64,000 nt of DNA from an uncultured Collinsella sp. (GCA_958403385.1 CATXXC010000003.1:51269-115268); one strand, 5' to 3'. Shown: positions 3,302-41,215, numbered from the stretch's first letter. Numbers and translations: made by a program. The notes: a model not told the origin generated them from the sequence alone.

Positions 3302-3324
3302 GCGACACCCCTCATCAAAACCGA

Positions 3325-3398
3325 CCAAAAAAGGACAGGTTTATTTTGGTAGGTAAAACGCTAAACCTGCCAAAACAAACCTGTCCCTTTTTGGCAGG
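3325..3398. repeat. Palindromic intergenic element: two inverted 29-nt units with a GGACAGGTTT core; probable nikR terminator
   Basis: ccaaaaaaggacaggtttattttggtagg (3325-3353) and cctgccaaaacaaacctgtccctttttgg (3366-3394) are reverse complements with 3 mismatches. The right unit alone forms a 10-bp stem (cctgccaaaa/ttttggcagg). The element lies between the nikR stop and the hypF start. Confidence 0.75.
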
Positions 3399-3417
3399 TG
3401 CGCTGCGGGAAATTCCG

Positions 3418-4722: not shown

Positions 4723-4923
4723 GGTGACCTCCATAGTGTGACGCGGCTCGGCCGCGTAAAACTCAGTACGACCGTGCTTATACCCAGCGGCCCGCAAAGC
4801 AACCACTCGCGGGCGGCTCTTTTATCAAAAGCGCCGCAAAACCCCTTTCTTCAGATATGGGGATATAAGGCGCATCGGCGTCAGCCGATATACATATACG
4901 GCTGCAAGTGGTATACTGTTTTC

Positions 4924-5319
4924 ATGGATAGATACAGGAGCAACGACAACATAGTCTGGGACTGCGACTACCATGTGGTCTTCTGCCCGAAATACCGCAG
5001 GAAGGTGCTCGTGGACGGCATCGGCTCCCGCTTCGAGGAGATCGCGCACGAGGTCGCGGAGGAACTCGATTTCGAGATAAGGGAAATCAAGGTCATGCCC
5101 GACCGCGTGCACATGCTCGTCTCAGTCGACCCCCAGTTCGGCATCCACCGGGCCGTGAAGCGCATCAAGGGCAGGACCAGCCACGACCTGCGCGCCGAGT
5201 TCCCGCAGCTGAAGCGCAAGCTGCCGACGCTCTGGACGAACAGCTACTTCGTCTCGACCGTCGGCGGGGCGACGCCCGAGGCCGTCAGGCAGTATATCGA
5301 GGACCAGAGGAACGCGTGA
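4924..5319 (+). CDS. tnpA: IS200/IS605 Y1 (HUH) transposase TnpA
   Basis: MDRYRSNDNIVWDCDYHVVFCPKYRRKVL.. with the HUH motif (MPDRVHMLVSV) and a C-terminal Tyr region (LWTNSYFVSTVGG). Start at ATG 4924, preceded by an extended -10 (TGGTATACT). Confidence 0.92.
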   Translation: MDRYRSNDNIVWDCDYHVVFCPKYRRKVLVDGIGSRFEEIAHEVAEELDFEIREIKVMPDRVHMLVSVDPQFGIHRAVKRIKGRTSHDLRAEFPQLKRKLPTLWTNSYFVSTVGGATPEAVRQYIEDQRNA

Positions 5320-6506
5320 GGGCCATGGACAAGACCTTCGAGTACCGCATATACCCGAGCGCCGAGCAGGAGGCCCTCCTGCAGAAGACCTTCGGCTGCT
5401 GCCGCTGGGTCTACAACAGGGTGCTGGCGATGAGGCGGGACGAGTACGCGTGGACGGGCAAATCGAGGCACATCAACTCCTACATCACCCAGATCCCCGC
5501 CTGGAAGAGGGCGGACGCGCCGTGGCTCTCCGAGGTGGACTCCATGGCACTGCAGCAGTCCCTGCGCGACCTGGACAAGGCATTTAAGAACTTCTTCCGC
5601 GCACCAGGCAAGGTGGGCTTTCCGAAGTTCAAGTCCAAACGCGCGGGGAGGAAGAGCTACCGCACGAACGGCGTCGGGATAATCGACGCCAGGCACGTGA
5701 GGCTGCCAAAGCTGGGGACCGTCAGGGCGCGGGTGAGCCGTCCCGTGGAGGGGCGCGTCCTGTCCGCGACGGTCAAGCAGGTGCCGAGCGGCAAGTACTA
5801 CGTGGCGATATGCTGCGCGGACGTCCCCGCCACGGACGCGCCGGCCCCGACCGTCGGGTTCCTGGGAGTCGATGCGGGAATACACGACATAGCCACCTGC
5901 TCCACGGGGGAGCGCCTGCCCAACCCCAAAAACCTGCAAAGGAGCGAGAGGAGGCTGGCGCGGGAGCAGCGGCGGCTCTCGCGCAAGCGGAAGGGCTCCG
6001 CAAATCGCGCCAGGCAGCGTGTCAGGGTCGCGCGGGCGCACGAGAAGGTTGCCAACCGGCGGAAGGACGCCCTGCACAAGTTCACGACGCATGCGGTGGG
6101 AGAAAGCCAAAACATCGCGGTCGAGGACCTGAACGTCAGGGGCATGCAGAGGAACCGCCGCCTCGCCAAGGCCGTGGGCGATGCCGCCATGTCGGAGCTG
6201 GCGCGCCAGCTCGAGTACAAATGCGCATGGTCGGGGCGCGGCTTCGTAAGGGTGGGCAGGTTCTATCCGTCCAGCAAGACGTGTTCCGCATGCGGTTACG
6301 TCTACAGGGGACTGACGCTGGCCGAACGGGTATGGGACTGCCCCGCGTGCGGCATGCGTCACGACCGCGACCTGAACGCCGCCGTCAACATCGCCCGCGA
6401 GGGAAGGAGAATCCTGGAAGGTACCGCAGGGCATGCGGGAACCGCGGCAGACGCCGCAAACGCTTGTGGAGAGGGCGTAAGACCTACGGCTGCATGCGCA
6501 GTCTAG
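5316..6506 (+). CDS. tnpB: TnpB (IS605 OrfB) RuvC-like RNA-guided nuclease family
   Basis: MDKTFEYRIYPSAEQEALLQKTFGCCRWVYN.. N-terminus. RuvC residues present: LGVDAGIHD, IAVEDLNVRGM, RHDRDLNAAVNI. Zinc finger CSACG..CPACG. Start is GTG 5316 or ATG 5325. Confidence 0.9.
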   Translation: MRAMDKTFEYRIYPSAEQEALLQKTFGCCRWVYNRVLAMRRDEYAWTGKSRHINSYITQIPAWKRADAPWLSEVDSMALQQSLRDLDKAFKNFFRAPGKVGFPKFKSKRAGRKSYRTNGVGIIDARHVRLPKLGTVRARVSRPVEGRVLSATVKQVPSGKYYVAICCADVPATDAPAPTVGFLGVDAGIHDIATCSTGERLPNPKNLQRSERRLAREQRRLSRKRKGSANRARQRVRVARAHEKVANRRKDALHKFTTHAVGESQNIAVEDLNVRGMQRNRRLAKAVGDAAMSELARQLEYKCAWSGRGFVRVGRFYPSSKTCSACGYVYRGLTLAERVWDCPACGMRHDRDLNAAVNIAREGRRILEGTAGHAGTAADAANACGEGVRPTAACAV

Positions 6507-6597
6507 GCAATTCTCGGTGAAGCAAGAATCCCCTGGCTTTAGCCATGGGGAGTGTCAAATAATGGTGGGCACGCAAACGATTGGAGAGCGCATACCT

Positions 6598-7167: not shown

Positions 7168-7227
7168 CGGACCGGCGCTGGCAAGGTGGCCCCGGCGGGC
7201 CGAGCATGCCGGCAGCTTGTCGCGTCC

Positions 7228-8505
7228 CTACATCACGGCACGCAGCTCAAATCGGTCGCCGTGAATGCGGAACTGGCAGTTGCCGTTCATGCGCTCGACG
7301 GCGAGCTTAATGCTCTTGGTGCCAAAGCCGTGGCCGGCGTGCTGGGCCACGGGCATGCCGTCAACCATACGCGGCGGGCGGTCAAACGTGTTAGAGACCA
7401 AAAGCAGCAGCTGCCCGTCTTCGTAGCGCAGGTCCAGATCGACGAATCGTTTGCCCTGGGGAGCGGCGCTCGCGGCGACGATGGCGTTGTCCAGGGCATT
7501 CGAGAGCACGCTAAACAGGTCGACATCGGCCACATGGACGTTCTCTGGCACGGCGGCGCGCAGGTCGGCGGTGATACCGTTTCGGTTGATATCGGAGCTA
7601 AATGACGAAAGCACGATGTTGACCGTTTCGTTGGCACAGTAGCGGCGCACGGCGGTGCGGTCGTTTGTCTCACAGAGTTCGTTGATGCGCCCGAGCGCCT
7701 CGTCGACGTGACCCTCTTCGATTAAAACCGCAAGGCCGCGCAGGAAGTGCCGCATGTCATGGCGCAGAACCGAAAGCTCGCGTCCAGATTGACGCCAGGC
7801 TTCGAGCTCTTTGATAGCTGCGCTATCGCGGGTCTCGAGCATCCAACGCTCGCGCTCGGCGGCCTCTTTAGCCTCGTATTCGCGCAGATACACAGCAAGA
7901 AACATAAGGTAGAAAGCGCAAAGCGCAAACGCCAAAAACTCAACGGTCACAACCGAGCCCGAGTGGAACAACGTGGTGTAGACGTTGGTGGCGTAGTCAA
8001 AGATGTAATAGACGAGCGGCAGGATGAGCAGAATCTCGAGCTCGGTAGGGCTTTTGACTGCCAAGCGCGGACCGATGTCGCCGGCCCAGTGCAGCAGGAG
8101 CACAAAGACGGCGACCGTGGTGATAATGCGTGTCGCGTAGTACGCGATTTGCGAGCCGCAGGCGGCGAGCGCGGCGATGCCCATCCAGTTGCTAAATTGG
8201 CAGCTCAGGTATGCGCTGGTGACGCCGAGCATAACGAGCAAAGGGCTCAGCCGATAGCGCGCGCACAGATAGATGACGAGCGGCAGATGCACGACGAGCG
8301 GATACACCTGTCGAGCGAAAAGTTCGCCGCCAAAGACATTGGCGAGCGCAAAGGCGGTACCGGTGAGCACGTCAACCGCGATCAGCTCAAGCGCATGACG
8401 GCGGTTGATCTCGACCCCGCACAGCGCTGCCGAGGCGAAAACGCCAAAGAGCAGGGTCGTTGCGTGGTGGATTGCCCAAAGCAGCATTTCGGCCGTGGGG
8501 AGCAT
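7228..8505 (-). CDS. Membrane sensor histidine kinase, AgrC/ComD-like (HPK10-type, GHKL ATPase)
   Basis: About 6 N-terminal TM helices, H-box LSVLRHDMRHFLRG, N-box VLSNALDNAIVAA, and G-box GHGFGTKSIK near the C-terminus. The ATG overlaps the regulator stop (ATGA). Confidence 0.85.
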   Translation of the reverse strand: MLPTAEMLLWAIHHATTLLFGVFASAALCGVEINRRHALELIAVDVLTGTAFALANVFGGELFARQVYPLVVHLPLVIYLCARYRLSPLLVMLGVTSAYLSCQFSNWMGIAALAACGSQIAYYATRIITTVAVFVLLLHWAGDIGPRLAVKSPTELEILLILPLVYYIFDYATNVYTTLFHSGSVVTVEFLAFALCAFYLMFLAVYLREYEAKEAAERERWMLETRDSAAIKELEAWRQSGRELSVLRHDMRHFLRGLAVLIEEGHVDEALGRINELCETNDRTAVRRYCANETVNIVLSSFSSDINRNGITADLRAAVPENVHVADVDLFSVLSNALDNAIVAASAAPQGKRFVDLDLRYEDGQLLLLVSNTFDRPPRMVDGMPVAQHAGHGFGTKSIKLAVERMNGNCQFRIHGDRFELRAVM

Positions 8506-9227
8506 CAGTGCCTCCCGCCCTCAAAGCGCGCCGCAAAGTAGGCATCTTGGAACCCCTGCTTGCAACTGCGTGCCAACGGGATACAGGCGCCCGATCTCAT
8601 GAAGATCTCCGTGCGATCGAAGTGGTCGATGTTGCGCAAGTTGACCTGGTAGCTACGGTGGCATTTAAAGAAGGTGGCATTTTGCGCCAAACGGTCCTCG
8701 ACGCTGCGGAACGACTCGAGTGCCTCGATATCGCGTCCGTCGCGCAGGTGGAAGACCACGTGCTTGTTGCGCGCCTCGGCATATTCGATGTCGGACAGGC
8801 GCAGGGCGTGGTAGCCAAAGGACGTTTTGATCACGAGCTCGTCGGTTGCCGCCGGGCGCATGCTCGAAAGCTCGTCGAGTAACTGTGCCAGGCGTTCGTA
8901 AGTCACGGGCTTGAGCAGATAGTCGAAGGCGCGGACCTCGTAGGACTCCAGTGCAAACTCGGGCGATGAGGTGAGAAACACCAGACGCACAGCGGTATCG
9001 GCCCGGCGCAATTCGCGCGCGGTGTCCATGCCGTTGACGAGCGGCATGATCATGTCGAGCAGGATGATGTCGGCGCGCGATGCGGCATGGCGGGCCAGCA
9101 GGTCCTCGCCACGCGTGACGAGCGCAACATCGACCGCCGTGCCCGTCTCGGTCGACCAACGGTCGATTATCCGGTGCAGTCTATCTAGAAAAGCGACGTC
9201 GTCGTCGCAGGCAATAATCTTGAGCAT
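8505..9227 (-). CDS. Response regulator with LytTR DNA-binding domain (AgrA/LytR family)
   Basis: Receiver domain (MLKIIACDDD.., DIILLDMIMPLVNGMD) plus a LytTR domain (..FFKCHRSYQVNLRNIDHF..). Start at ATG 9227 with AAGGGGG upstream. Confidence 0.88.
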   Translation of the reverse strand: MLKIIACDDDVAFLDRLHRIIDRWSTETGTAVDVALVTRGEDLLARHAASRADIILLDMIMPLVNGMDTARELRRADTAVRLVFLTSSPEFALESYEVRAFDYLLKPVTYERLAQLLDELSSMRPAATDELVIKTSFGYHALRLSDIEYAEARNKHVVFHLRDGRDIEALESFRSVEDRLAQNATFFKCHRSYQVNLRNIDHFDRTEIFMRSGACIPLARSCKQGFQDAYFAARFEGGRH

Positions 9228-11981: not shown

Positions 11982-12842
11982 ATGAATCCCATTACCATGA
12001 AGCTCGTCGTCGATGATCTGATTTTGCAGGCCCTGCGCGAGGACATCACCTTTGAGGACGTGAGCACGGCGAGCGTGTGCCCCACGGCGCGCCCCGCCAC
12101 CGTTGAGCTCATCGCCAAGGCAGATGGCATCATCGCCGGCCTGGACGTGTTCGCCCGCACCTTTGAGCTGCTGGATCTGCAAAGCTCCGTGCTGTTTGAT
12201 GTCGCGGATGGCGACGAGGTGCACGCCGGCGACCATGTGGGCCAGGTGCGCGGCGACGCGCGCGTGCTGCTTTCGGGCGAGCGCGTGGCACTCAACTACC
12301 TGCAGCGCATGAGCGGCATCGCCACCTATACGCACCAGATGGCCGCGGCGCTCGAGGGCACCAAGACCGTGCTCGTCGACACGCGCAAGACCACGCCGGG
12401 CATGCGCGTCTTCGAGAAGGCGGCAGTCGAGATCGGCGGCGGCAGCAACCACCGCTACAACCTGTCGACGGCCGTCATGCTCAAGGACAACCACATCGAC
12501 GCCGCCGGTGGCGTGGCGCGTGCGATCGAGATGGCGCGCGCCCATGCGTCGTTTACCACGACGGTCGAGATTGAGTGCGAGAATCTGGATATGGTGCGCG
12601 AGGCCGTTGAGGCCGGTGCCGACATCATCATGCTCGACAACATGACGCACGACGACATGGCCGCCGCCATCGAGCTTATCGACGGCCGCGCCAAGACCGA
12701 GTGCTCGGGCAACGTGGATGCCGGCAATATTCGCGCCTTGGCCGACCTGGGCGTCGACTTTATTAGCTCGGGCGCCCTGACGCACTCCGCGCCGATCCTC
12801 GACTTCTCACTTAAGCACCTGCGTCTGCTGGACGGTAAATAA
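11982..12842 (+). CDS. nadC: Nicotinate-nucleotide pyrophosphorylase (quinolinate phosphoribosyltransferase)
   Basis: NadC-type sequence (..LSGERVALNYLQRMSGIAT.., DTRKTTPGMR, LKDNHI, IEIECENL, IMLDNM, SGALTHSA). Confidence 0.93.
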   Translation: MNPITMKLVVDDLILQALREDITFEDVSTASVCPTARPATVELIAKADGIIAGLDVFARTFELLDLQSSVLFDVADGDEVHAGDHVGQVRGDARVLLSGERVALNYLQRMSGIATYTHQMAAALEGTKTVLVDTRKTTPGMRVFEKAAVEIGGGSNHRYNLSTAVMLKDNHIDAAGGVARAIEMARAHASFTTTVEIECENLDMVREAVEAGADIIMLDNMTHDDMAAAIELIDGRAKTECSGNVDAGNIRALADLGVDFISSGALTHSAPILDFSLKHLRLLDGK

Positions 12843-13387
12843 TGAATGCTCGCGAGCGTCGCCGTGCCATCATGGCCGTGCTCGAGGGGGCCAAAGATCC
12901 CGTTTCGGGCAGCGCGCTTGCCCGCGAGGTGGGCGTGAGCCGTCAGGTCGTGGTGCAGGACATCGCCCTGCTGCGCGCCGACGGGCACGATATCGTCGCC
13001 ACCAACCGCGGCTACGTGCTGCAAGAAGCCGCGAGCAGTCCGGCTGTGCCCACGCGCCTGGTCAAGGTGCGCCACAGCGTGGAACAGGCGGGCGATGAGC
13101 TCACGAGCATCGTCGATGCGGGCGGCGCCGTGCTCAACGTGATCGTCAACCATCGCGTGTACGGCAAGATCACGGCCGACCTGGACATTCGCAACCGCCG
13201 CGATATCGAGCGCTACCTGCACGACATCGCCAGCGGCAAGAGCTTTCCGCTGCTGACGGTTACGAGCGGCTATCACTTCCACCGCATCGCGGCAGAAGAC
13301 GAACAAACCCTCGACGAGATCGAGGCCATGCTCAAGGAAAAGGGCTACTTGGCAGATCTGATGCCCTATGAGGACAACCTCGGCTAG
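12842..13387 (+). CDS. niaR: Niacin-responsive repressor NiaR (YrxA family: HTH + 3H domain)
   Basis: N-terminal HTH (RRRAIMAVLEGAKDPVSGSALAREVGVSRQVVVQDIALLR) and 3H-domain histidines (NHRVYG.., GYHFHRI). The start overlaps the nadC stop (TAATG). Confidence 0.85.
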   Translation: MNARERRRAIMAVLEGAKDPVSGSALAREVGVSRQVVVQDIALLRADGHDIVATNRGYVLQEAASSPAVPTRLVKVRHSVEQAGDELTSIVDAGGAVLNVIVNHRVYGKITADLDIRNRRDIERYLHDIASGKSFPLLTVTSGYHFHRIAAEDEQTLDEIEAMLKEKGYLADLMPYEDNLG

Positions 13388-13417
13388 ACCACCAATTTGG
13401 GGACAGGTTTCAAATTG
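13387..13417 (+). repeat. Left copy of a perfect 31-bp inverted repeat (GGACAGG hairpin family)
   Basis: gaccaccaatttggggacaggtttcaaattg begins at the last base of the niaR stop codon. Its exact reverse complement lies at 16612-16642. It contains its own 7-bp stem (caatttg/caaattg). Confidence 0.95.
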
Positions 13418-13518
13418 AGGGTTGCAAAAACGAGGGCTATCGCGCCGATGCGATTGCCCTCGTTTTATTAAATATGAAATGCTAAATCCGCAAGTAAAAA
13501 CGTGTTTAAGATGCGGTG

Positions 13519-14664
13519 CTACTGGTGGTCTCCGGAATATCGGACGTAGGCATCCGACATGCCTTGATTTTTTAAGGCAGAAACCGCTTGTTCCGCCTCA
13601 GTTCGACTTGAAAACCTGCCAGCGGAAACCGAATACCACGTCTCCTTGTTAAGGTTTGTCCAGTCTGTTGTGCACACGACAATTGCGTCTGGGAACCCGC
13701 TGTTTCTAAGATCATCTGCCTTTTTCTTCGATGTTGTATAGTCCTTACTGGCCATGACGAATGCGCCCCAAAATGGGCTTATTTCTGAAAGAGAAGACGT
13801 CGATGACTCATTCTGCTCGACGGCTTTCTTTGCATTTTCAGCCTCTTGCTCAGCGCGCTTTTGAGCGGCAGAAGCATCCTCGGCTTGTTTGGCGGAAACT
13901 GCTGCATCACGAGCTCCCCTTGCGGCTGCAGCTAGAGCTTTCGCTGAGCTCTTCGAATCGCAACCTCCCCGCTCGGCTAACTTTTCTGCCGCATTGATTT
14001 GCTCGTCGGTAACATCGGCTGGATCGATCTTGTCACCCAATGTCAGCTTTGCCATCTCGCGGAAATCAGCCTTTTCGCCATCTTTGAGAGCACGCTTCAC
14101 TTTAAATTTTACGCTCGAATCGGAAACGTTCCAGAGCGAGCCGTCCGCTCCAATCGGAGTACCCTCTATTGCGAGCCCATATGTTCCCGGAATGAGTTCA
14201 AGACCTTTTCCATCGGAATCGACAAATGCCGTTTCGTCGATTTTGCTTCCGTTGACATCGGTTCCTTTCACGCGGATCGGTAGCTTGGAAGCTCCTTCTG
14301 ATGTATTCCATCCATCTCCGGAAACACTGATAAGAACAGAATGCTTCGAGTATTCAGCTGCAGTGGTCTTCTGCTTCTTTGTCGTCTGTTTCGATTGCGG
14401 CATGTACACGCCAAAGTAATAGCTGGCACCTCCGCATGCGACTAACGCCGCAATCATCGCTGCTACAATGATTCGCGTACGCTTTTTGGGTTGTCTGCTC
14501 CGCCTGGTTGTAGAGACATTGCGCAGCCGATTGCCAAGCGCAGGCTGAGTTGGCTCAAGAGGTTGACTAGATAAATCAACCTGGGCTGAATCCAGTGGTG
14601 CCCCGCATTGAACGCAGAATTGCATTCCGTCTTCGTTTTTCGTGCCGCATTCTGTGCAGTACAT
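13519..14664 (-). CDS. Zinc-ribbon / single-TM / SPOR-domain envelope protein
   Basis: N-terminal double CxxC zinc ribbon (MYCTECG..CVQCG), TM helix (IIVAAMIAALVACGGASYYFGVY), a central domain paralogous to the 30485-31987 protein, a coiled/charged linker, and a C-terminal SPOR-like segment (FWGAFVMASKDY..WYSVSAGRFSSRTEAEQAVSALK). Confidence 0.8.
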   Translation of the reverse strand: MYCTECGTKNEDGMQFCVQCGAPLDSAQVDLSSQPLEPTQPALGNRLRNVSTTRRSRQPKKRTRIIVAAMIAALVACGGASYYFGVYMPQSKQTTKKQKTTAAEYSKHSVLISVSGDGWNTSEGASKLPIRVKGTDVNGSKIDETAFVDSDGKGLELIPGTYGLAIEGTPIGADGSLWNVSDSSVKFKVKRALKDGEKADFREMAKLTLGDKIDPADVTDEQINAAEKLAERGGCDSKSSAKALAAAARGARDAAVSAKQAEDASAAQKRAEQEAENAKKAVEQNESSTSSLSEISPFWGAFVMASKDYTTSKKKADDLRNSGFPDAIVVCTTDWTNLNKETWYSVSAGRFSSRTEAEQAVSALKNQGMSDAYVRYSGDHQ

Positions 14665-14697
14665 ATGAGTCTCCTCGGTTTGATTTACAGAGACCTT

Positions 14698-15627
14698 CTA
14701 TTCAAAACGATGGCCACATTTGCCACAGAATTTTGCAGACTCATCCTGCATGGCGCCACAATCGGGACACCATTTCTTTCCAGCTTCGTTGCCTGCCGTT
14801 TCGTTACTCGTTATCGGACTGCCGTCGCCTTGCTTCTGCGCAGTATCTTGGTAGGTATTGGACATACTTCCGACCACCTGCTCGGCAGCTTGCTTTATAT
14901 TTTTCAATTCAGAATCAGAAAAGAGGTCTTTCCCGTTGCGGCCCAATACCGCGCGAAGATGAAATACGACCATCATGGCCGTTCCCGCTACAAGCAATAC
15001 CGCACCGACGCCAACGCTGAAACCAAATCCTGCATCTCTGATAAGGCTGTTCAATATAACAACTAAAGAAATGCCGCCTGTTGCGACGCCAATCAAAGGA
15101 AGGCCACAGCAGCCCAAGACGGTTGCAATAATCCAAATAGGCTGAAACCACCAATAGCCCATGGCAACATAGCTGCCGCCCAAATAGGATGTGGAGGTCA
15201 GTTCTTTGGAAGAAAAACCGAGAAATGATGCGACGATGGCAATTAAGGTGGCTAGCACCATCATTTTCTGGTTAAACCCAAAGGAAAAAGAAAGGCCTAT
15301 TTTCTGCTGCTTCGTGTTAAATGCGGTCTGTTGCACTTGATTTCCGAGGTTCGAAATGACGGCCCTGGCGCTATCGACTGCTTCGTGTGCTGTCTGAATA
15401 TTGTCCGCTGCTTCGCTCCTATCCGCCGGATGAGATGTACGCTCGCTGCTTCTATTCGGTTCCGTTTGTTTTGCGGCCGCTCTTTTGCTTTCGTCGGTTT
15501 GCGCGTTCGCTCTCGTCTCTTTATATGAGCTATTAGGCTCACAAAGAGACGCTCCGCATTTCTCGCAATACACTGCTATTTCAGAATTCTTGTGGCCACA
15601 TTTCCAGCAGTACATTTTTGTCCCCAT
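14698..15627 (-). CDS. Polytopic membrane protein with zinc ribbons at both termini
   Basis: N-terminal YCWKCG..YCEKCG and C-terminal WCPDCG..FCGKCG zinc ribbons flank about 4 TM helices. Codon usage is AT-richer. Start at 15627 or 15615. Confidence 0.75.
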   Translation of the reverse strand: MGTKMYCWKCGHKNSEIAVYCEKCGASLCEPNSSYKETRANAQTDESKRAAAKQTEPNRSSERTSHPADRSEAADNIQTAHEAVDSARAVISNLGNQVQQTAFNTKQQKIGLSFSFGFNQKMMVLATLIAIVASFLGFSSKELTSTSYLGGSYVAMGYWWFQPIWIIATVLGCCGLPLIGVATGGISLVVILNSLIRDAGFGFSVGVGAVLLVAGTAMMVVFHLRAVLGRNGKDLFSDSELKNIKQAAEQVVGSMSNTYQDTAQKQGDGSPITSNETAGNEAGKKWCPDCGAMQDESAKFCGKCGHRFE

Positions 15628-15640
15628 TTCCTATCTAAAG

Positions 15641-16054
15641 CTAGAGCTCCTGCATGCTGCAGGGTTCATTTTTGTCATTGGAAAACGCCTCTCGATACTT
15701 CACGGAAGCCTTTGAGACCCTGGTTCTTTCGAACTCGACTACGTCATGCCGCCAGTCTTCGTTCTCGAAATAATGGTTTGCGTATGATTCGAAGAATCCT
15801 TCTCCGGGGATATGGTTCGAATCATTCTTTCTTCCTACCAGCGCGGGCAAGCTTGGCAGGCCTGCGCTTTCGCACCATTCCTGGACGGCATCTAAAAGAA
15901 AAGCAACCTCTCTGCTATGAGGATTTCCCATATCCATCCTCTGAGCGAACTCCGAGTAACTAATCGGGTCCTGTCCCTCATGAGACGCTTGCCATATCAC
16001 CATGGCGGCCTTTTGGATCTTAGTTTCGGCGAATCGATGGTTTTGCTTATCCAT
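15641..16054 (-). CDS. Small cytoplasmic protein, possible winged-helix fold, unknown function
   Basis: 137-aa ORF, first gene of a three-gene minus-strand operon (13-nt and 33-nt gaps). The segment ISYSEFAQRMDMGNPHSREVAFLLDAVQEWCESAGLPSLPALVGRKNDSNHIPGEGFF resembles MGMT/ATL-type wHTH modules by eye only. Confidence 0.6.
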   Translation of the reverse strand: MDKQNHRFAETKIQKAAMVIWQASHEGQDPISYSEFAQRMDMGNPHSREVAFLLDAVQEWCESAGLPSLPALVGRKNDSNHIPGEGFFESYANHYFENEDWRHDVVEFERTRVSKASVKYREAFSNDKNEPCSMQEL

Positions 16055-16077
16055 AGAACCACTCCTTTGCTAACGCC

Positions 16078-16170
16078 TTGTTTGCATATTAAGCTGGGAA
16101 AAGTCGGTTTGCAAACTCTCTGTTTGTTGTTCAACAAATCCGTATGTCATAGCGTTGATTTATGCAAACA
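16078..16170. promoter_or_regulatory. Divergent promoter region with three TGTTTGCA-type half-site motifs (candidate XRE operators)
   Basis: ttgtttgcata (16078-16088), the perfect palindrome gtttgcaaac (16107-16116), and tatgcaaaca (16161-16170, overlapping the XRE ATG). The outer two are reverse complements. Confidence 0.5.
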
Positions 16171-16389
16171 GAGGGTTTTCAAAACTTCAACAAGCAGCTG
16201 GGCCACCATCTGCAACTTCTTCGAAAGAGCCAAGGGTTGTCCCAAGAGGCTGTCGGAGAAGCGCTCGGCATGGACCGGGTTTCGATTGGATATATCGAGC
16301 AAGGAAAGCGAGCTCCTCGGCTTCAGACCCTCTACGCGTTGGCACTTCTCTACAGAGTTCCCGTTGCAAAGCTGTTTGATTTTGAATAG
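16162..16389 (+). CDS. XRE/Cro-CI family helix-turn-helix regulator
   Basis: 75 aa with HTH_3 signature LLRKSQGLSQEAVGEALGMDRVSIGYIEQGKRAPRLQTLYALALLY. Confidence 0.85.
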   Translation: MQTEGFQNFNKQLGHHLQLLRKSQGLSQEAVGEALGMDRVSIGYIEQGKRAPRLQTLYALALLYRVPVAKLFDFE

Positions 16390-16611
16390 GGCGCTCGGTG
16401 TTGTAAACGAAATGCTTTTCTATCGCTACGTCTAACTTTAAATAGCTGCTTCCTATTAGTAAAAAGATGCAGAACATTTTTGCCAGCGTCTGTTCAGTCT
16501 GACTTCTTCGGCTGTCGTTGGTTTGTCTCGGCTGCTGCAGATTTAGTTGTTAATGCGGGTGATTTTGTCCACATTCCCATTTTGGGCGAACTCGTGGCGG
16601 GACAAAACCGC

Positions 16612-16642
16612 CAATTTGAAACCTGTCCCCAAATTGGTGGTC
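16612..16642 (-). repeat. Right copy of the perfect 31-bp inverted repeat
   Basis: caatttgaaacctgtccccaaattggtggtc is the exact reverse complement of 13387-13417. Confidence 0.95.
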
Positions 16643-16684: not shown

Positions 16685-16724
16685 AAAAGGAGGCCTCCGC
16701 GGCGATGCGGAGGCCTCCTTTTTT
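16685..16724. terminator. Bidirectional intrinsic terminator
   Basis: 12-bp GC-rich stem ggaggcctccgc/gcggaggcctcc with loop ggcgat, flanked by an A-run upstream and a T-run downstream. Lies downstream of the ferredoxin gene. Confidence 0.8.
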
Positions 16725-16763
16725 GTGCACGGTGTACTTGTGAGTGTGCAAGTGGGGGAGTTG

Positions 16764-17170: not shown

Positions 17171-17350
17171 TGCGGAAAGGGCATCCCGTTATTTGGCCGA
17201 AAACCGGGTTGCAGTTTCCGGTTAGGCCCGCTAGCGGAAAATGCGAGCCGGTATCAGCTCTCAAAACGGGATACGGTTTCCGGTTGAGTCTTCAGACGGA
17301 AACTGCGACCCGGAATCCACGCTCAAACCGGGACGAGCTTTCCGCAAGGC
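17171..17350. repeat. Degenerate tandem repeat, period 62-63 bp, about 3 units
   Basis: Units start at 17200, 17263 and 17325 (AAAACCGGG..GTTTCCGGTT..CGGAAA..TGCGA.CCGG.ATC..GCTC). Each holds a gtttccg/cggaaac-type hairpin. A half unit precedes at about 17171. Confidence 0.7.
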
Positions 17351-24775: not shown

Positions 24776-25432
24776 TTATTTCGATGGGGTCCAGGTTATT
24801 TCATCGTCAAATAGCCAAGTGCGTGCTGAGCCACTGTCGCGCGCTGTCTGTGGATCGGGCTCGCAAGTTTGTTCGTAGGCATCCTCGGTACACCGATCCA
24901 TAAAATCGACGACTGCCGTCTGGTCGCCTTCCATGACGTAGATCACGTTGCCATCCGAGATATAGACTCCCGGCCCTTCGTTGTCCACGTAGCCGGGGTC
25001 GTATGAAACGTTGCATAGTCTGCTCCCGTTTGCCGCATCGAGTTCAAGGGTCGAATAATACCCGCCATTCATTTGGCCTTTCTTGGCTCGATATATTGCG
25101 GCGCCGTACCATCGCTTAAACGTCTTGCCTTTGAGTAAACTGGTCGCCTTGCCGATAAGCTGCTCATCTTGGGTATAGCGCGTGGCTCCAAGTTCGATTC
25201 GGGGATAGTTGCTGACCCCAAGCGTTGCGGGCGTACCGTCGAAATCGACGGTGATTGAATCGGGTTTGACGATATCGGTGAGGATTTCGATGGGATAGCT
25301 TATGGTTTCAACCGCCGCCTGCGTCGCCGAGGCAGGGAGAAATGCGAGATAGATAATGCCTACGCCGACTGCGGTAATTGCAAACGCTAAGACGAGCAGG
25401 CCGATATAGGTGGAGCGTTTCACGGTGGGCAC
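24776..25432 (-). CDS. Membrane-anchored extracytoplasmic protein, unknown function
   Basis: Single N-terminal TM helix (YIGLLVLAFAITAVGVGIIYLAF) then a roughly 180-aa domain. Start at GTG 25432 or GTG 25423. Confidence 0.65.
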   Translation of the reverse strand: MPTVKRSTYIGLLVLAFAITAVGVGIIYLAFLPASATQAAVETISYPIEILTDIVKPDSITVDFDGTPATLGVSNYPRIELGATRYTQDEQLIGKATSLLKGKTFKRWYGAAIYRAKKGQMNGGYYSTLELDAANGSRLCNVSYDPGYVDNEGPGVYISDGNVIYVMEGDQTAVVDFMDRCTEDAYEQTCEPDPQTARDSGSARTWLFDDEITWTPSK

Positions 25433-25608
25433 CTCTCATGTAATATGCAATCATTAAGATAAATGATACAAGCTTACGACAATATTCAAAAGAAAGCGAT
25501 CGTTCGAAATGGGGGGCTAAAAGGCCCTATTGGGCTTCGATTTGGGATCGCCAAACGTAGACTGGGCTTGATACCGCCTCTTTTAATCGGGGCTGATTCT
25601 TCTCTGGA

Positions 25609-25641
25609 CCACCACAAAGGGGACAGGCACCTTTGTGGTGG
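25609..25641 (+). repeat. GGACAGG-loop hairpin (12-bp stem), same family as 3325-3398 and 13387/16612
   Basis: ccaccacaaagg-ggacaggca-cctttgtggtgg, preceded by GA as in the 13387 copy (GACCACCA...). Confidence 0.8.
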
Positions 25642-25666
25642 TTTGCATGTCATGAGAGCACTCAGA

Positions 25667-28760: not shown

Positions 28761-28828
28761 AAGTTGCGGTGAAATAGGGATTGTTTTGCGGTTTGACCAG
28801 CAAAAACAGTCCCTATTTCACCGCAACT
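28761..28828. repeat. 68-bp palindromic intergenic element, copy 1 (AAGTTGCGGTGAAATAG...CTATTTCACCGCAACT)
   Basis: The terminal 16-17-nt arms are reverse complements. Same length and termini as 37403-37470 and 41089-41156. Confidence 0.9.
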
Positions 28829-28990
28829 GCGTTAGGGATTTTTCTACAGGGGAAGGGTAGTCAAAAAAGTCCCGTCCCAAATCGACTGTCTAGGGAGTCG
28901 CATTCGAGCTTGGTTGTCCTCTCAGCCACTCGGCATCCTTCGAGCAGTAATAGTGAAAAAACTTGCTTAAGTGCTAATCAAGTCAGACAT

Positions 28991-30484: not shown

Positions 30485-31987
30485 CTAGTCCTGGGCTTTG
30501 ATGCTCGGCAGGAGAATCTGGGCGAGGTAGTCGGTCTCGAGTTTGGTCGCGGCGCCGGCTTTGCCGTCTTTGCCGACCAGCACTTTTTTGATCTGGCTAT
30601 AGGTATAGCGGTTGCCGGTCGTAAGTTCGACAAGCTCAACTGCAGTGTCCATGGGGTAGGTCGACACGGGGTCTTGCGTGCGTCCGTTGATGGTCTGGGG
30701 CACCACATACGGATAAACGGGGCCGCTGGCGTAGACGGTGTAGCCGTTGCCGAGGTTTGCCGCACCCAAAACCGCGTCGCCCTCATCGGGCGTAAAGCTC
30801 TCGCCGTCGCGCACCGTGACAAGCGTCACAAGCGGCGTGTTCGTGTCGCCGGCAAGATATATGCACAGCGTGCTGCCGTTTTGCCAAGTCGCGACTTTGC
30901 CGTACCACTCAACGGGAATATCGAGCTGATACAGGTCCGTTGCCTTATGTCGAGCATCGGCGTCGCGGGCCGCCTGCGCCTTGCGGGAGCTCACGGCGTT
31001 GGTCGCGGCGTCGCGTCGCGCGGTTGCCGCCTGCTGGAGTACCTTTGCGACCGCGGCGGAATTCACCCCGCCTTCCTCGGCATACTTGGCGGCGGCATCG
31101 ATCTGGTCGTCGGTCACCGTGTCGGCCGAAGGCACCTCGAGCTTAAAGGTGGCCTGGGCACTCAAATCCTGCCCATCGCTCTTAATGGCGACCTGCGCCT
31201 TGGTGGTCGGGACGGTGTAGATGGTGCCGTCGGCCGCGATGGGGGAGGCGGCAATGGAGAGCGTGTAATCGCCGGGCAGCAGCTTAACGCCGCGACCGTG
31301 CTCGTCAACATAGAGCGTTTCGCTCACGGAAGAACCGTCGGAATCCTGCCCGCTCACCTGCACGGGAATCTTGGAGCCAGTTGAGCAGTCGAGGCCCGCG
31401 GCATGCACGCCAATCTGCACCGACATCATCGTGTGGGCATTGGCGGCGACAGCGGCAGCCTGCTCTTGTTGATATCCGTTCCAGGCAGCATAGCCTGCAC
31501 CGCCGGCGACAAGCGCGACGGCCACGACGCCGGCGACCATCAGATTGCGGCGCTTTGGCGACATCTTGCGATGGCGGACCTCGGCTTCGCGTGCCGAGGG
31601 AACGGACGGCAGGGGAATATCGCCCATGGCGATGGTCTCATCGACGACAGGAGCAGAGCCTAGGCCGGGGAGCTCGCGGGTCAGCGAATCCTCGGCCGGC
31701 AAGCTGTCGAGCAAGATGGTTTCCTCGCTCGTATCGGATTCGGTCTGGTCGTCGGCCTCACATTCGGATTCCTCGTGCCCCGCCTCGTCTTCGGTGGGCG
31801 CGGCGCCATCGTCTTTTGCATCCTGATCATCGGGCTGCGCCTCGATTTCCGGCTCATCCTGCGCATCGACGCTCGAATCGTCAAACGCAATCTCGGCCAG
31901 CGCGATCTGGTCTAGGCTCTCCAGGGCCTCGGCGCACGCTTCTGCATCTTGGGCCGCATCCTCTTGGTCCATCGTCTCATCTTTCAT
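30485..31987 (-). CDS. Membrane-anchored protein: acidic cytoplasmic N-terminus, single TM, extracytoplasmic domains (paralogous domain shared with 13519-14664)
   Basis: Start set at ATG 31987 (MKDETMDQED.., GGGGGA upstream). TM helix NLMVAGVVAVALVAGGAGYAAW. The segment SKIPVQVSGQDSDGSSVSETLYVDEHGRGVKLLPGDYTLSIAASPIAADGTIY aligns with the island protein. Confidence 0.75.
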   Translation of the reverse strand: MKDETMDQEDAAQDAEACAEALESLDQIALAEIAFDDSSVDAQDEPEIEAQPDDQDAKDDGAAPTEDEAGHEESECEADDQTESDTSEETILLDSLPAEDSLTRELPGLGSAPVVDETIAMGDIPLPSVPSAREAEVRHRKMSPKRRNLMVAGVVAVALVAGGAGYAAWNGYQQEQAAAVAANAHTMMSVQIGVHAAGLDCSTGSKIPVQVSGQDSDGSSVSETLYVDEHGRGVKLLPGDYTLSIAASPIAADGTIYTVPTTKAQVAIKSDGQDLSAQATFKLEVPSADTVTDDQIDAAAKYAEEGGVNSAAVAKVLQQAATARRDAATNAVSSRKAQAARDADARHKATDLYQLDIPVEWYGKVATWQNGSTLCIYLAGDTNTPLVTLVTVRDGESFTPDEGDAVLGAANLGNGYTVYASGPVYPYVVPQTINGRTQDPVSTYPMDTAVELVELTTGNRYTYSQIKKVLVGKDGKAGAATKLETDYLAQILLPSIKAQD

Positions 31988-37402: not shown

Positions 37403-37470
37403 AAGTTGCGGTGAAATAGTTCCTAAATCCAGCCTTCTGGCTCTTAAACAAGAACTATTCCACCGCAACT
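37403..37470. repeat. 68-bp palindromic intergenic element, copy 2
   Basis: aagttgcggtgaaatag...ctattccaccgcaact, starting 11 nt after the hypA stop. Confidence 0.9.
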
Positions 37471-37797
37471 ATTTTGAGTGGTTTCATAGACCATAAGTCA
37501 CGAAAATAGTCAAGCCATGTCTGTTTAAACAAAATAGCGGCAGTACAAGCGCATTCGCGCTTGCCTAAAATCGATATTAATGAACAGCCTGCTTGTATCT
37601 GTAAAATGCTTGGCTTGATGAGCGACGCCTTGTCGTGTAATGAGTCAAAAAGCAGTAACGTAATCAACTTGTAACAAACCTAGACGTTTAAACAAATAAT
37701 CCAACCTTTTGCGGATTTAGCTATAATTCCACAAACCAAACAGCTATACTCCTTTCATGTCGTGTAGGAAATACGTAGACAAAAAGGAGGTTATGTG

Positions 37798-41088: not shown

Positions 41089-41156
41089 AAGTTGCAGTGA
41101 AATAGTTTCTAAATACGGCTTTAGATGCTTCAGACAGGAACTATTCCACCGCAACT
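41089..41156. repeat. 68-bp palindromic intergenic element, copy 3
   Basis: aagttgcagtgaaatag...ctattccaccgcaact, starting 9 nt after the manO stop. Its interior resembles copy 2. Confidence 0.9.
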
Positions 41157-41215
41157 TCGAAGTCTAGTCATGCGACGTATGGCGATGCAGTAAATCTGCT
41201 ACACTAGTACAACAT

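Follow-up and report, generated by a model that had tools for sequence, protein, structure and literature searches.

Repetitive extragenic palindromic (REP) sequences and other palindromic units serve as targets for insertion sequences (ISs), as in IS1397-type insertion into REP loops, and the pdif modules of Acinetobacter plasmids consist of recombinase-less cargo that is bounded by inverted XerC/D sites and found in either orientation. Mobile insertion cassettes (MICs), for example MIC231 of Bacillus cereus, provide a precedent for insertion in trans (PMC6199540). REPINs are inverted REP doublets with a short spacer that form hairpins in single-stranded DNA or mRNA (PMC3116915, PMC3337134). 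The locus described here is a block of four genes between two inverted hairpin units, located between niaR and the ferredoxin gene fdx at positions 13387–16642 of a 64,000-nt stretch from an uncultured Collinsella sp. (GCA_958403385.1 CATXXC010000003.1:51269-115268; hereafter the window, in which all coordinates are counted). This cassette departs from MICs, in that no cognate IS was found and only a single site is seen, and from REPINs, in that its spacer is long and no REP-associated tyrosine transposase (RAYT) was found in the ~64 kb and the genome fragments covered.

We consider it probable, if only just, that 13387–16642 is a horizontally acquired, strain-variable accessory cassette of Collinsella, ended by inverted REP-like hairpins of ~37 nt, which inserted once in trans, has been sessile since then and has flipped once. 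Its boundaries are marked by the 31-mer GACCACCAATTTGGGGACAGGTTTCAAATTG, which occurs at 13387–13417 on the plus strand and as an exact reverse complement at 16612–16642 (two matches, versus none in 100 shuffled sequences), with no further copies within three mismatches in the window. The left copy begins at the last base of the niaR stop codon, the open reading frame (ORF) of niaR spanning 12842–13387 (181 residues, Pfam HTH_11 and 3H; preceded by nadA, nadB and nadC). Within 13424–16605 the G+C content is 0.489, compared with 0.635 and 0.627 in the flanking 5 kb, and the lowest-G+C segment of 3.18 kb in the whole 64 kb is the cassette interior, with its minimum at 13401. G+C at third codon positions (GC3) is likewise 0.49–0.57 in the four cassette genes and 0.83–0.87 in nadB, nadC, niaR and dnaK. 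No transposase, integrase or invertase domain was found in the four proteins using Pfam, PHROGs and PADLOC. In all of these respects, including the AT-richness of the enclosed genes, the original prediction from the sequence was borne out. It had also placed the right repeat just inside the ferredoxin terminator, but that hairpin lies at about 16685–16725 and the right arm is ~43 nt beyond it. The claim that the match stops abruptly at both ends holds for the outer ends only, as inward of the 31-bp match the arms continue imperfectly (GAGGGTT versus GGCGGTT) and reach 46 nt at 87% once mismatches are allowed. The 31/31 perfection is particular to the window strain; in most of its relatives, the loop of the right arm carries a single mismatch.

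Neither arm is one half of a single palindrome; both are complete hairpin units with a stem and a 5-nt ACAGG loop (ACCACCAATTTGGGG-ACAGG-TTTCAAATTGG(C/T)GGT). Five such units occur at three sites in the window, and none in shuffled sequence (Table 1). The basal stem of unit A is imperfect (ACCACC versus GAGGGT); this unit folds as RNA at −12.9 kcal/mol on the plus strand and −8.9 kcal/mol on the other, and with DNA parameters it is a weak hairpin (−5.6 kcal/mol, z −2.2). Unit B, with an RNA fold of −15.6 kcal/mol, appears terminator-like in a terminator scan. Unit C folds at −15.8 kcal/mol as DNA and −25 kcal/mol as RNA (z about −5.4), and its position is kept across Collinsella strains, with partial decay in some. 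The prediction that the same repeat family recurs near 3325–3398 was correct, in that a related inverted doublet lies there, with 35-nt arms that are 86% complementary, 10 nt apart and built on the common core GGACAGGTTT; it folds at −26 kcal/mol (z −7.7). This doublet is also present in L009, L013, L015 and L055, and in L002 (~280–320) it is down to half a unit (ACCGACCAAATAGGGACAGGT|GCGCT), as though a deletion had joined two short direct repeats, GGACAGGT and GGCAGGT.

Table 1 Positions of the cassette features and hairpin units in the window
Feature	Coordinates	Strand	Description
Inverted doublet (unit D +, unit E −)	3320–3399		In the nikR–hypF spacer; same hairpin family
Unit A, cassette left end	13387–13423	+	37-nt hairpin GACCACCAATTTGGGG-ACAGG-TTTCAAATTGAGGGTT; loop 13403–13407
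Terminator-like palindrome	13425–13469		AAAAACGAGGGC...GCCCTCGTTTTATT; separates unit A from the 3′ end of the SPOR gene
Cargo gene 1, 381 aa	13519–14664	−	Zinc ribbon, one hydrophobic segment, C-terminal SPOR (peptidoglycan-binding) domain
Cargo gene 2, 309 aa	14698–15627	−	Zinc ribbons at both termini, hydrophobic core
Cargo gene 3, 137 aa	15641–16054	−	No Pfam, PHROGs or PADLOC match
Divergent intergenic region	16055–16161		Separates the regulator gene from the three-gene operon
Cargo gene 4, 75 aa	16162–16389	+	XRE-family helix-turn-helix regulator; divergent from the three-gene minus-strand operon
Unit B, cassette right end	16606–16642	−	GACCACCAATTTGGGG-ACAGG-TTTCAAATTGGCGGTT; loop 16622–16626, then TTTT on the minus strand
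Solo unit C	25608–25643	+	ACCACCACAAAGGGG-ACAGG-CACCTTTGTGGTGGT; sense-strand downstream of the aconitase gene, upstream of clpB

An alignment of 20 distinct units from the window and other loci, aligned on the loop, contains 91% paired cells, compared with 67% in shuffles and about 50% when the partners are slid by one column. Changes on both sides were seen in 11 of the 15 stem pairs, the covariation score was reached by none of 500 shuffles, and GGACAGG is invariant. As the pattern used to retrieve the metagenomic members already specifies part of the stem, informative variation comes from the basal stem and from the native Collinsella units. In the latter, the three pairs at the top of the stem are G.T/G.U, which gives the ACAGG strand the better RNA fold. 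Beyond Collinsella, the stem top and loop (TTTGGGG-ACAGG-CCCCAAA, or CACC) occur in metagenome contigs with a G+C content of 0.39–0.48 and 0.63 (L049–L051, L053, L056 and L060–L068), where they form solo units, inverted or direct doublets and intergenic clusters, and where the basal stems differ and covary (GTG/CAC, CCTC/GAGG, TTC/GAA, GGCT/AGCC). Their neighbors in these contigs are ordinary genes, for example for PolC, a histidine kinase, a radical-SAM enzyme and a metallophosphatase, with no recurring enzyme gene beside the hairpins; the contig that encodes PolC presumably belongs to Firmicutes. Recombined flanks at identical hairpins (L050, L053, L061, L066) were considered as a sign of site-specific recombination, but a dispersed multi-copy repeat is the simpler account. 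At gathering thresholds, Rfam returned a tRNA and nothing else, and its E-value mode yielded only generic models of long hairpins (miRNA) that scored far below threshold. Searching the literature with the hairpin motif as a text string gave only unrelated primer or eukaryotic matches, annotated plasmids and phages had no match to the hairpin or the cassette, and viral contigs had none to two hairpin patterns. The hairpin family is REP-like, being stable, extragenic and conserved in structure; it is also cross-phylum, spanning Collinsella and unrelated low-G+C gut bacteria, and absent from Rfam.

Strains related to the window differ in what lies between niaR and fdx. Exact-protein matches assign the locus to Collinsella, and they include CP048433, a complete genome with an empty site. 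A ferredoxin query reached 10 genomes; the contigs reached with the window's NiaR allele all carry the cassette. In 8 of the 10 genomes (L011, L013–L018, L020) niaR and fdx are adjacent, 91–242 bp apart; the remaining two have the cassette (L012) or an rve-family IS (L019) in the gap. Four kinds of empty gap were seen. The minimal form is TAG-TAACGACGAATGC-terminator (L017, L018), a second kind holds a ~69-bp palindromic mini-element, AAGTTGCGGTGAAATAG... (L011, L014, L016), and the other two hold a different palindrome, AAACGCCCCTAAGCG..., which is shorter in L020 than in L013 and L015. None of these eight gaps holds an ACAGG hairpin or hairpin doublet. Strains with the cassette and strains without it are interleaved in neighbor-joining trees built from the flanking genes, which points to gain or loss, or to recombination that involved the entire region. 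Between close relatives, the cassette has diverged about as much as its flanks (93–97% in one collinear alignment).

On a larger scale, we scanned one genome per species, for 185,579 species, with the pattern CAATTTGRGGACAGGTTTCAAATTG, and JGI metagenome contigs with a looser pattern. The genomes yielded 12 stretches, all from Collinsella and all from this locus with the cassette, and the metagenome contigs yielded cassette loci again together with unrelated contigs. The exact unit was found at this locus only, in about nine Collinsella species representatives and in gut metagenome contigs, and neither scan recovered a cargo-free solo unit or doublet in the niaR–fdx gap. All cassette copies lie in this one gap, and there is no sign of ongoing transposition because the cassette sits at a single locus.

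These results bear on the original proposal that the ancestral niaR–fdx region held an inverted hairpin doublet and that foreign DNA inserted at its center, which would make the hairpins host sequence. Such doublets do exist, both in the window and in other organisms (L056, L062 and L063), and insertion at the center of a palindromic mini-element is documented in the same gap, where an IS3-family IS in L019 (8400–9740; terminal inverted repeat (TIR) GGGGGTGCGGAC, duplication AAT) sits at the middle of a ~69-bp mini-element. Moreover, the cassette units carry the Collinsella-type basal stem and face niaR and fdx in the sense orientation in both orientations of the cassette. The comparison of related genomes suggested with that proposal did reveal empty niaR–fdx sites, but across the four gap types none of the eight contains the two 31-nt units side by side, or indeed any unit or doublet, and the genome and metagenome scans show no unit at this locus without the cassette. 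In addition, in strains with the type-1 right junction described below, the niaR-end sequence CTAG+TAACGA lies outside the right unit, which places the units inside the candidate target duplication. Insertion into a pre-existing palindrome is not supported, because the empty sites hold neither the hairpin nor an adjacent pair, and we regard it as quite unlikely.

The niaR–fdx gap is an insertion hotspot, given the IS in L019, another IS in the metagenome strain L059 and the two types of palindromic mini-element found there. The L059 element (7216–8567) is a 1,351-bp IS with a 25-bp TIR, GGCTTATAGGACAAAATGTGTGTCC, and duplicated CTATAGTGG; it lies ~20 bp outside the right arm of the cassette and encodes a 398-residue ORF with an N-terminal zinc-ribbon-like motif. 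Mini-elements of the ~69-bp type (AAGTTGCGGTGAAATAGTTCCT...AGGAACTATTCCACCGCAACTT) also occur in the window at 28761–28829, 37403–37471 and 41089–41157, and two of them bracket a mannose phosphotransferase system operon beside a tRNA. The inverted-repeat pair 37403/41136, which we examined as a parallel split cassette, is actually formed by two complete ~69-bp palindromic mini-elements. Upstream of dnaK, the window also holds an imperfect 50-nt inverted repeat (17171–17346), which may be a heat-shock operator or leader sequence and of which an 82-nt piece (17263–17344) appears duplicated in several related strains. Near unit C, a lower-G+C gene for a membrane-anchored protein of 218 residues (24776–25432, minus strand) lies between the aconitase gene and the unit; this stretch varies among strains, with unrelated sequence in L014 and L020.

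The junctions of the cassette provide evidence about how it arrived. In ~37 loci, the left junction reads ...GAGGACAACCTCGGCTAG|ACCACC and NiaR ends in ...EDNLG*; in all empty strains, NiaR ends in ...EDDLS*. The left junction is always GCTA(C)G|ACCACC. The cassette-bearing strain L028 has the canonical ...EDDLS* stop, followed by 12 nt of the normal gap start (CCCGATGCCCGC) and then by TTGGCTAG|ACCACC, a junction indicating that YGGCTAG travels with the left unit. By comparison with L028, the common left junction would be an L028-like state that has lost about 20 nt, with niaR fused to the TAG of CTAG, which suggests that the insert altered the last residues of the NiaR repressor. Right junctions are of three types, each of which starts right after GGTGGTC. 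Type 1, CTAGTAACGAATGC-terminator, reads GGTGGTC|CTAG|TAACGAATGC across the junction and equals the sequence after the niaR stop codon in the empty strains L017 and L018 (CCTAG-TAACGACGAATGC); type 2 is AC-terminator; and type 3, that of the window, consists of 42 nt with homology to the distal portion of a gap like that of L020. CTAG stands on both sides of the unit-bounded block in type-1 strains only and is a candidate for a target duplication of 4 bp that encloses the units. A longer duplication that includes the gap start was rejected, as the two copies are too different. On both sides, the breakpoints of all junction variants (three on the left and four on the right) coincide with the outer unit edges.

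This coincidence matters for the alternative that the hairpins are bystanders, namely REP-like or terminator-like 3′-end structures between convergent genes, with the cassette having arrived by illegitimate or homologous recombination. The two units would then stem from local duplication or secondary colonization and be kept alike by gene conversion, and the inverted copy described below would be an accident. Single units do lie downstream of genes on the sense strand, the G.U pairs favor the ACAGG strand as RNA, unit B scores as terminator-like, and units at other sites are old, keep their positions and have housekeeping genes as neighbors. The lineage-specific variants shared by both units (TTT/TTT or TTC/TTC; see below) point to concerted evolution, and the window lacks a target duplication. 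However, two copies of a subfamily found nowhere else in the genome would have to land exactly at the two borders, all junction variants break at the outer unit edges, fdx already has a strong terminator between its stop codon and unit B, and unit A is weak as DNA. We judge this account, a sober one, to be unlikely.

A cassette in the reverse orientation was found in L039, a 3,129-bp ENA contig of a lineage represented in ERZ15609813 and related samples, reached via a 74%-identical homolog of the 137-residue cargo protein. Nucleotide identity to the window is 69–72% for the three operon genes and 82% for the regulator, which at 92% amino-acid identity is the most conserved cargo gene. In L039, the regulator end adjoins niaR and the SPOR-gene end adjoins fdx, the reverse of the window. 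This orientation is anchored by the coding sequence for the NiaR C terminus at one end (...KGYLAEIMPYEDDLLG*) and, at the other, by the fdx terminator with the non-palindromic fdx-side tail GCTAACGGTGT, as in L030. A mis-join is unlikely, we infer, as the exact core common to its two units is 25 nt, below usual final assembly k-mers. The niaR-side unit is again preceded by GCTA(C)G, and the fdx-side junction, GAG|CCAC|AAAAAAGAGG, resembles the type-2 junction GGTGGT|CAC|AAAAAGGAGG. The cargo-adjacent half-units are equal in both lineages: the SPOR end has GAGGGTT and the regulator end has ACCACC. This pattern fits an inversion in situ with a crossover inside the units, which would also explain why unit A of the window is a mismatched hybrid (ACCACC versus GAGGGT). 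The units themselves are 84–92% identical between the window and L039 (24/25 in the core), well above cargo and flanks, and both L039 units carry TTC where both window units carry TTT; together, these observations argue for constraint on the units and for concerted evolution between them.

An inverted copy also raises the question of programmed inversion, in which an invertase encoded elsewhere would act on the repeats and expression would change with each flip (phase variation). Inverted repeats do bound a discrete segment, both orientations exist in nature, and the units are more strongly conserved than their surroundings. Nevertheless, every junction-spanning contig of the close relatives, ~30 of ~30 independent contigs from many samples, has the window orientation, so there is no sign of frequent inversion, and the sole flipped copy belongs to a lineage that is ~25–30% diverged. 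No invertase or recombinase is present in the cassette or the flanking gene tables, and the arm sequences differ within the family, unlike the sites of a sequence-specific invertase. A flip would also leave expression unrewired, because the cassette genes are convergent with both flanks in either orientation and their promoter region is internal. Programmed inversion is thus highly improbable. The second suggestion of the original prediction, a non-autonomous mobile or invertible cassette, fits better: the block is strain-variable, of foreign composition, sharply edged at the outer ends of its units and flipped in L039, but shows no sign of ongoing transposition or of frequent inversion. In this context, short-read assemblies (L036, L038 and many contigs of 2–5 kb with cargo proteins) often end exactly at the hairpin units and give cassette-sized contigs; such breaks are expected because the inverted repeat is as long as the assembler k-mer, and they are no evidence of inversion.

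In the scenario that we favor, the whole block (unit, four genes, unit) would have been inserted once by an enzyme that recognizes hairpin ends and was supplied in trans, as suggested by the lack of any enzyme in the insert itself. The manner could be that of a MIC, or of a REPIN whose spacer has grown to 3.2 kb, and the flanking CTAG copies of the type-1 strains may have arisen as a target duplication of 4 bp. Since insertion the cassette would have been sessile, spreading or being lost by homologous recombination of its flanks. Small deletions beside the hairpins would have remodeled the junctions, with one of them fusing niaR to CTAG to give the ...NLG* terminus, and recombination between the inverted ends would have flipped the cassette once.

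Several points weigh against this scenario. First, neither a partner transposase nor an HUH enzyme came to light, and no autonomous element is known to have such ends. Second, there is one copy at one site, and mobility is thus a matter of historical inference only. Third, no target duplication is seen in the window (type 3) or in type-2 strains. Fourth, the basal stem ACCACC/GGTGGT is of a Collinsella-endemic type, common with unit C, and fits host-derived hairpins too. Finally, the flip itself can be questioned. The inverted state rests on one metagenomic contig of 3.1 kb and one similar contig. If a single crossover had caused the inversion, the unit beside fdx should be a hybrid, and it is not. 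Both cassettes have a G+C content near 0.49 despite ~30% divergence, which two acquisitions would fit at least as well. Two independent insertions in opposite orientation are possible, because the perfect unit B is not predicted by a single crossover and because of this shared composition.

The cargo offers some indications of function. The product of gene 1 matches Zn_Ribbon_1 (4.6e-09, N-terminal) and SPOR (8.7e-08) in Pfam, and its gene has a GC3 of 0.49. Its relatives at 48–58% identity are encoded by stand-alone chromosomal genes elsewhere, and an attempt to trace a donor operon through these diverged homologs led only to stand-alone paralogs in unrelated contexts; no donor taxon for the cassette was found. 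A native paralog of its central domain lies at ~31061–31435 on the minus strand of the window (40% identity over 133 residues, tblastn). The product of gene 2, with two stretches matching Zn_Ribbon_1 (1.8e-13), is predicted by eye to be a membrane protein. The suggested search for the distribution of the four proteins was rewarding: among 5.8 billion proteins, the 309-residue protein and the close relatives of the 137-residue protein are confined to the cassette. An exhaustive HMMER search linked the latter to a small, remote and unannotated family of proteins of 120–140 residues, which has no Pfam match and no PDB match by sequence. Its AlphaFold model (pLDDT 71) gave no significant fold match, the best E value being 1.5, with only faint hits to winged-helix regulators. 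The regulator matches HTH_31 (2.4e-14) and HTH_3 (5e-14), and the only match to PADLOC defense models was to a generic HTH. From the SPOR domain, we would guess that the cargo is related to the cell envelope or division. The gene arrangement leads us to presume that 16055–16161 holds the cassette's own promoters; a sigma-70 consensus scan of this region gave no convincing site. At the other end, the palindrome at 13425–13469, which is kept in all cassette-bearing strains, could end transcripts from both directions.

More broadly, the stem and ACAGG loop might be the recognition structure of a putative structure-specific DNA enzyme, RAYT/HUH-like or other, of Coriobacteriia and low-G+C gut bacteria, with inverted pairs of hairpins capturing, moving and flipping multi-gene cargo. 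We hold this idea to be doubtful and offer it as a speculation. If true, the cassette would be the first 'cargo-carrying REPIN' and would reveal a route by which REP-type repeats build accessory gene islets. If the hairpins are the working ends, the cassette would be a recombinase-less one with REP-like hairpin termini in place of IS ends, linking REP/REPIN repeats with passenger-carrying non-autonomous transposons, which are usually treated separately. If they are only bystanders, it would be an ordinary small genomic islet. Further outcomes are a hairpin family, undescribed so far, with members in Collinsella and in unrelated low-G+C gut bacteria, and two orphan cargo proteins restricted to the cassette. 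For Collinsella, a common human gut genus, niaR–fdx provides a strain-variable islet, an insertion hotspot and a clean marker of presence, absence and orientation.

The cassette can be compared with several known systems. It differs from integron cassettes in that its units are inverted, not direct, with the core GGACAGG in place of GTTRRRY, and no integrase is present. In elements of the IS200/IS605 type and in palindrome-associated transposable elements (PATEs), the hairpins are subterminal on the same strand and neither terminal inverted repeats nor a target duplication occur, whereas the hairpins of the cassette are on opposite strands as an inverted repeat. The window does contain an IS200/IS605-type element, at ~4826–6558 (Y1 transposase and TnpB), which is also found in L001, L004 and L007 and is precisely absent in L055; it was considered as a source of the hairpins, but its ends are unrelated to the ACAGG hairpin. 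Like pdif modules, the cassette holds recombinase-less cargo between two short, internally palindromic and inverted sites. By contrast with sequence-specific Xer sites, however, the arm sequences of the hairpin family vary with pairing kept, the center of the unit is a 5-nt loop flanked by G.T-pairing positions and not a 6-bp spacer, and the cassette is chromosomal and at a single locus. IS1397-type insertion has a parallel in the IS3-family IS of L019, which sits in the center of a different palindromic mini-element in the same gap, but the empty sites offer no hairpin as a target and each arm of the cassette is a whole unit.

REPINs and MICs are the models for the favored scenario. The RAYT gene of REPINs is a single-copy one that the repeats typically flank. 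No RAYT/Y1 gene is associated with the hairpins, the sole PF01797 match in the gene tables (~64 kb plus Collinsella genome fragments) being an IS200/IS605 TnpA, and the host range (Coriobacteriia plus low-G+C contigs) is outside the groups with characterized REPINs. Moreover, the spacer of the cassette is 3,182 nt with four genes, as opposed to tens of bases in REPINs. Nevertheless, the topology of two inverted units around a spacer is that of a REPIN, and the hairpin family resembles REP sequences and REPINs in being extragenic and positionally stable, in occurring as singlets and inverted doublets and in its invariant core and structure-preserving variation. With respect to MICs, whose inverted repeats are related to those of a resident IS with a transposase able to act in trans, no cognate IS with the ends of the cassette was found and the exact unit never lies beside a transposase in the genome and metagenome scans, which could miss an IS with more diverged inverted repeats. 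The cassette is also a single copy at a single locus, without a target duplication in the window, and its ends are complete hairpins of a dispersed REP-like family with covarying stems instead of ordinary IS ends. Yet in its overall plan it is like a MIC: two terminal inverted repeats enclose four coding sequences and no transposase in a strain-variable block of ~3 kb, with a possible short target duplication (CTAG) in one group of cassette strains.

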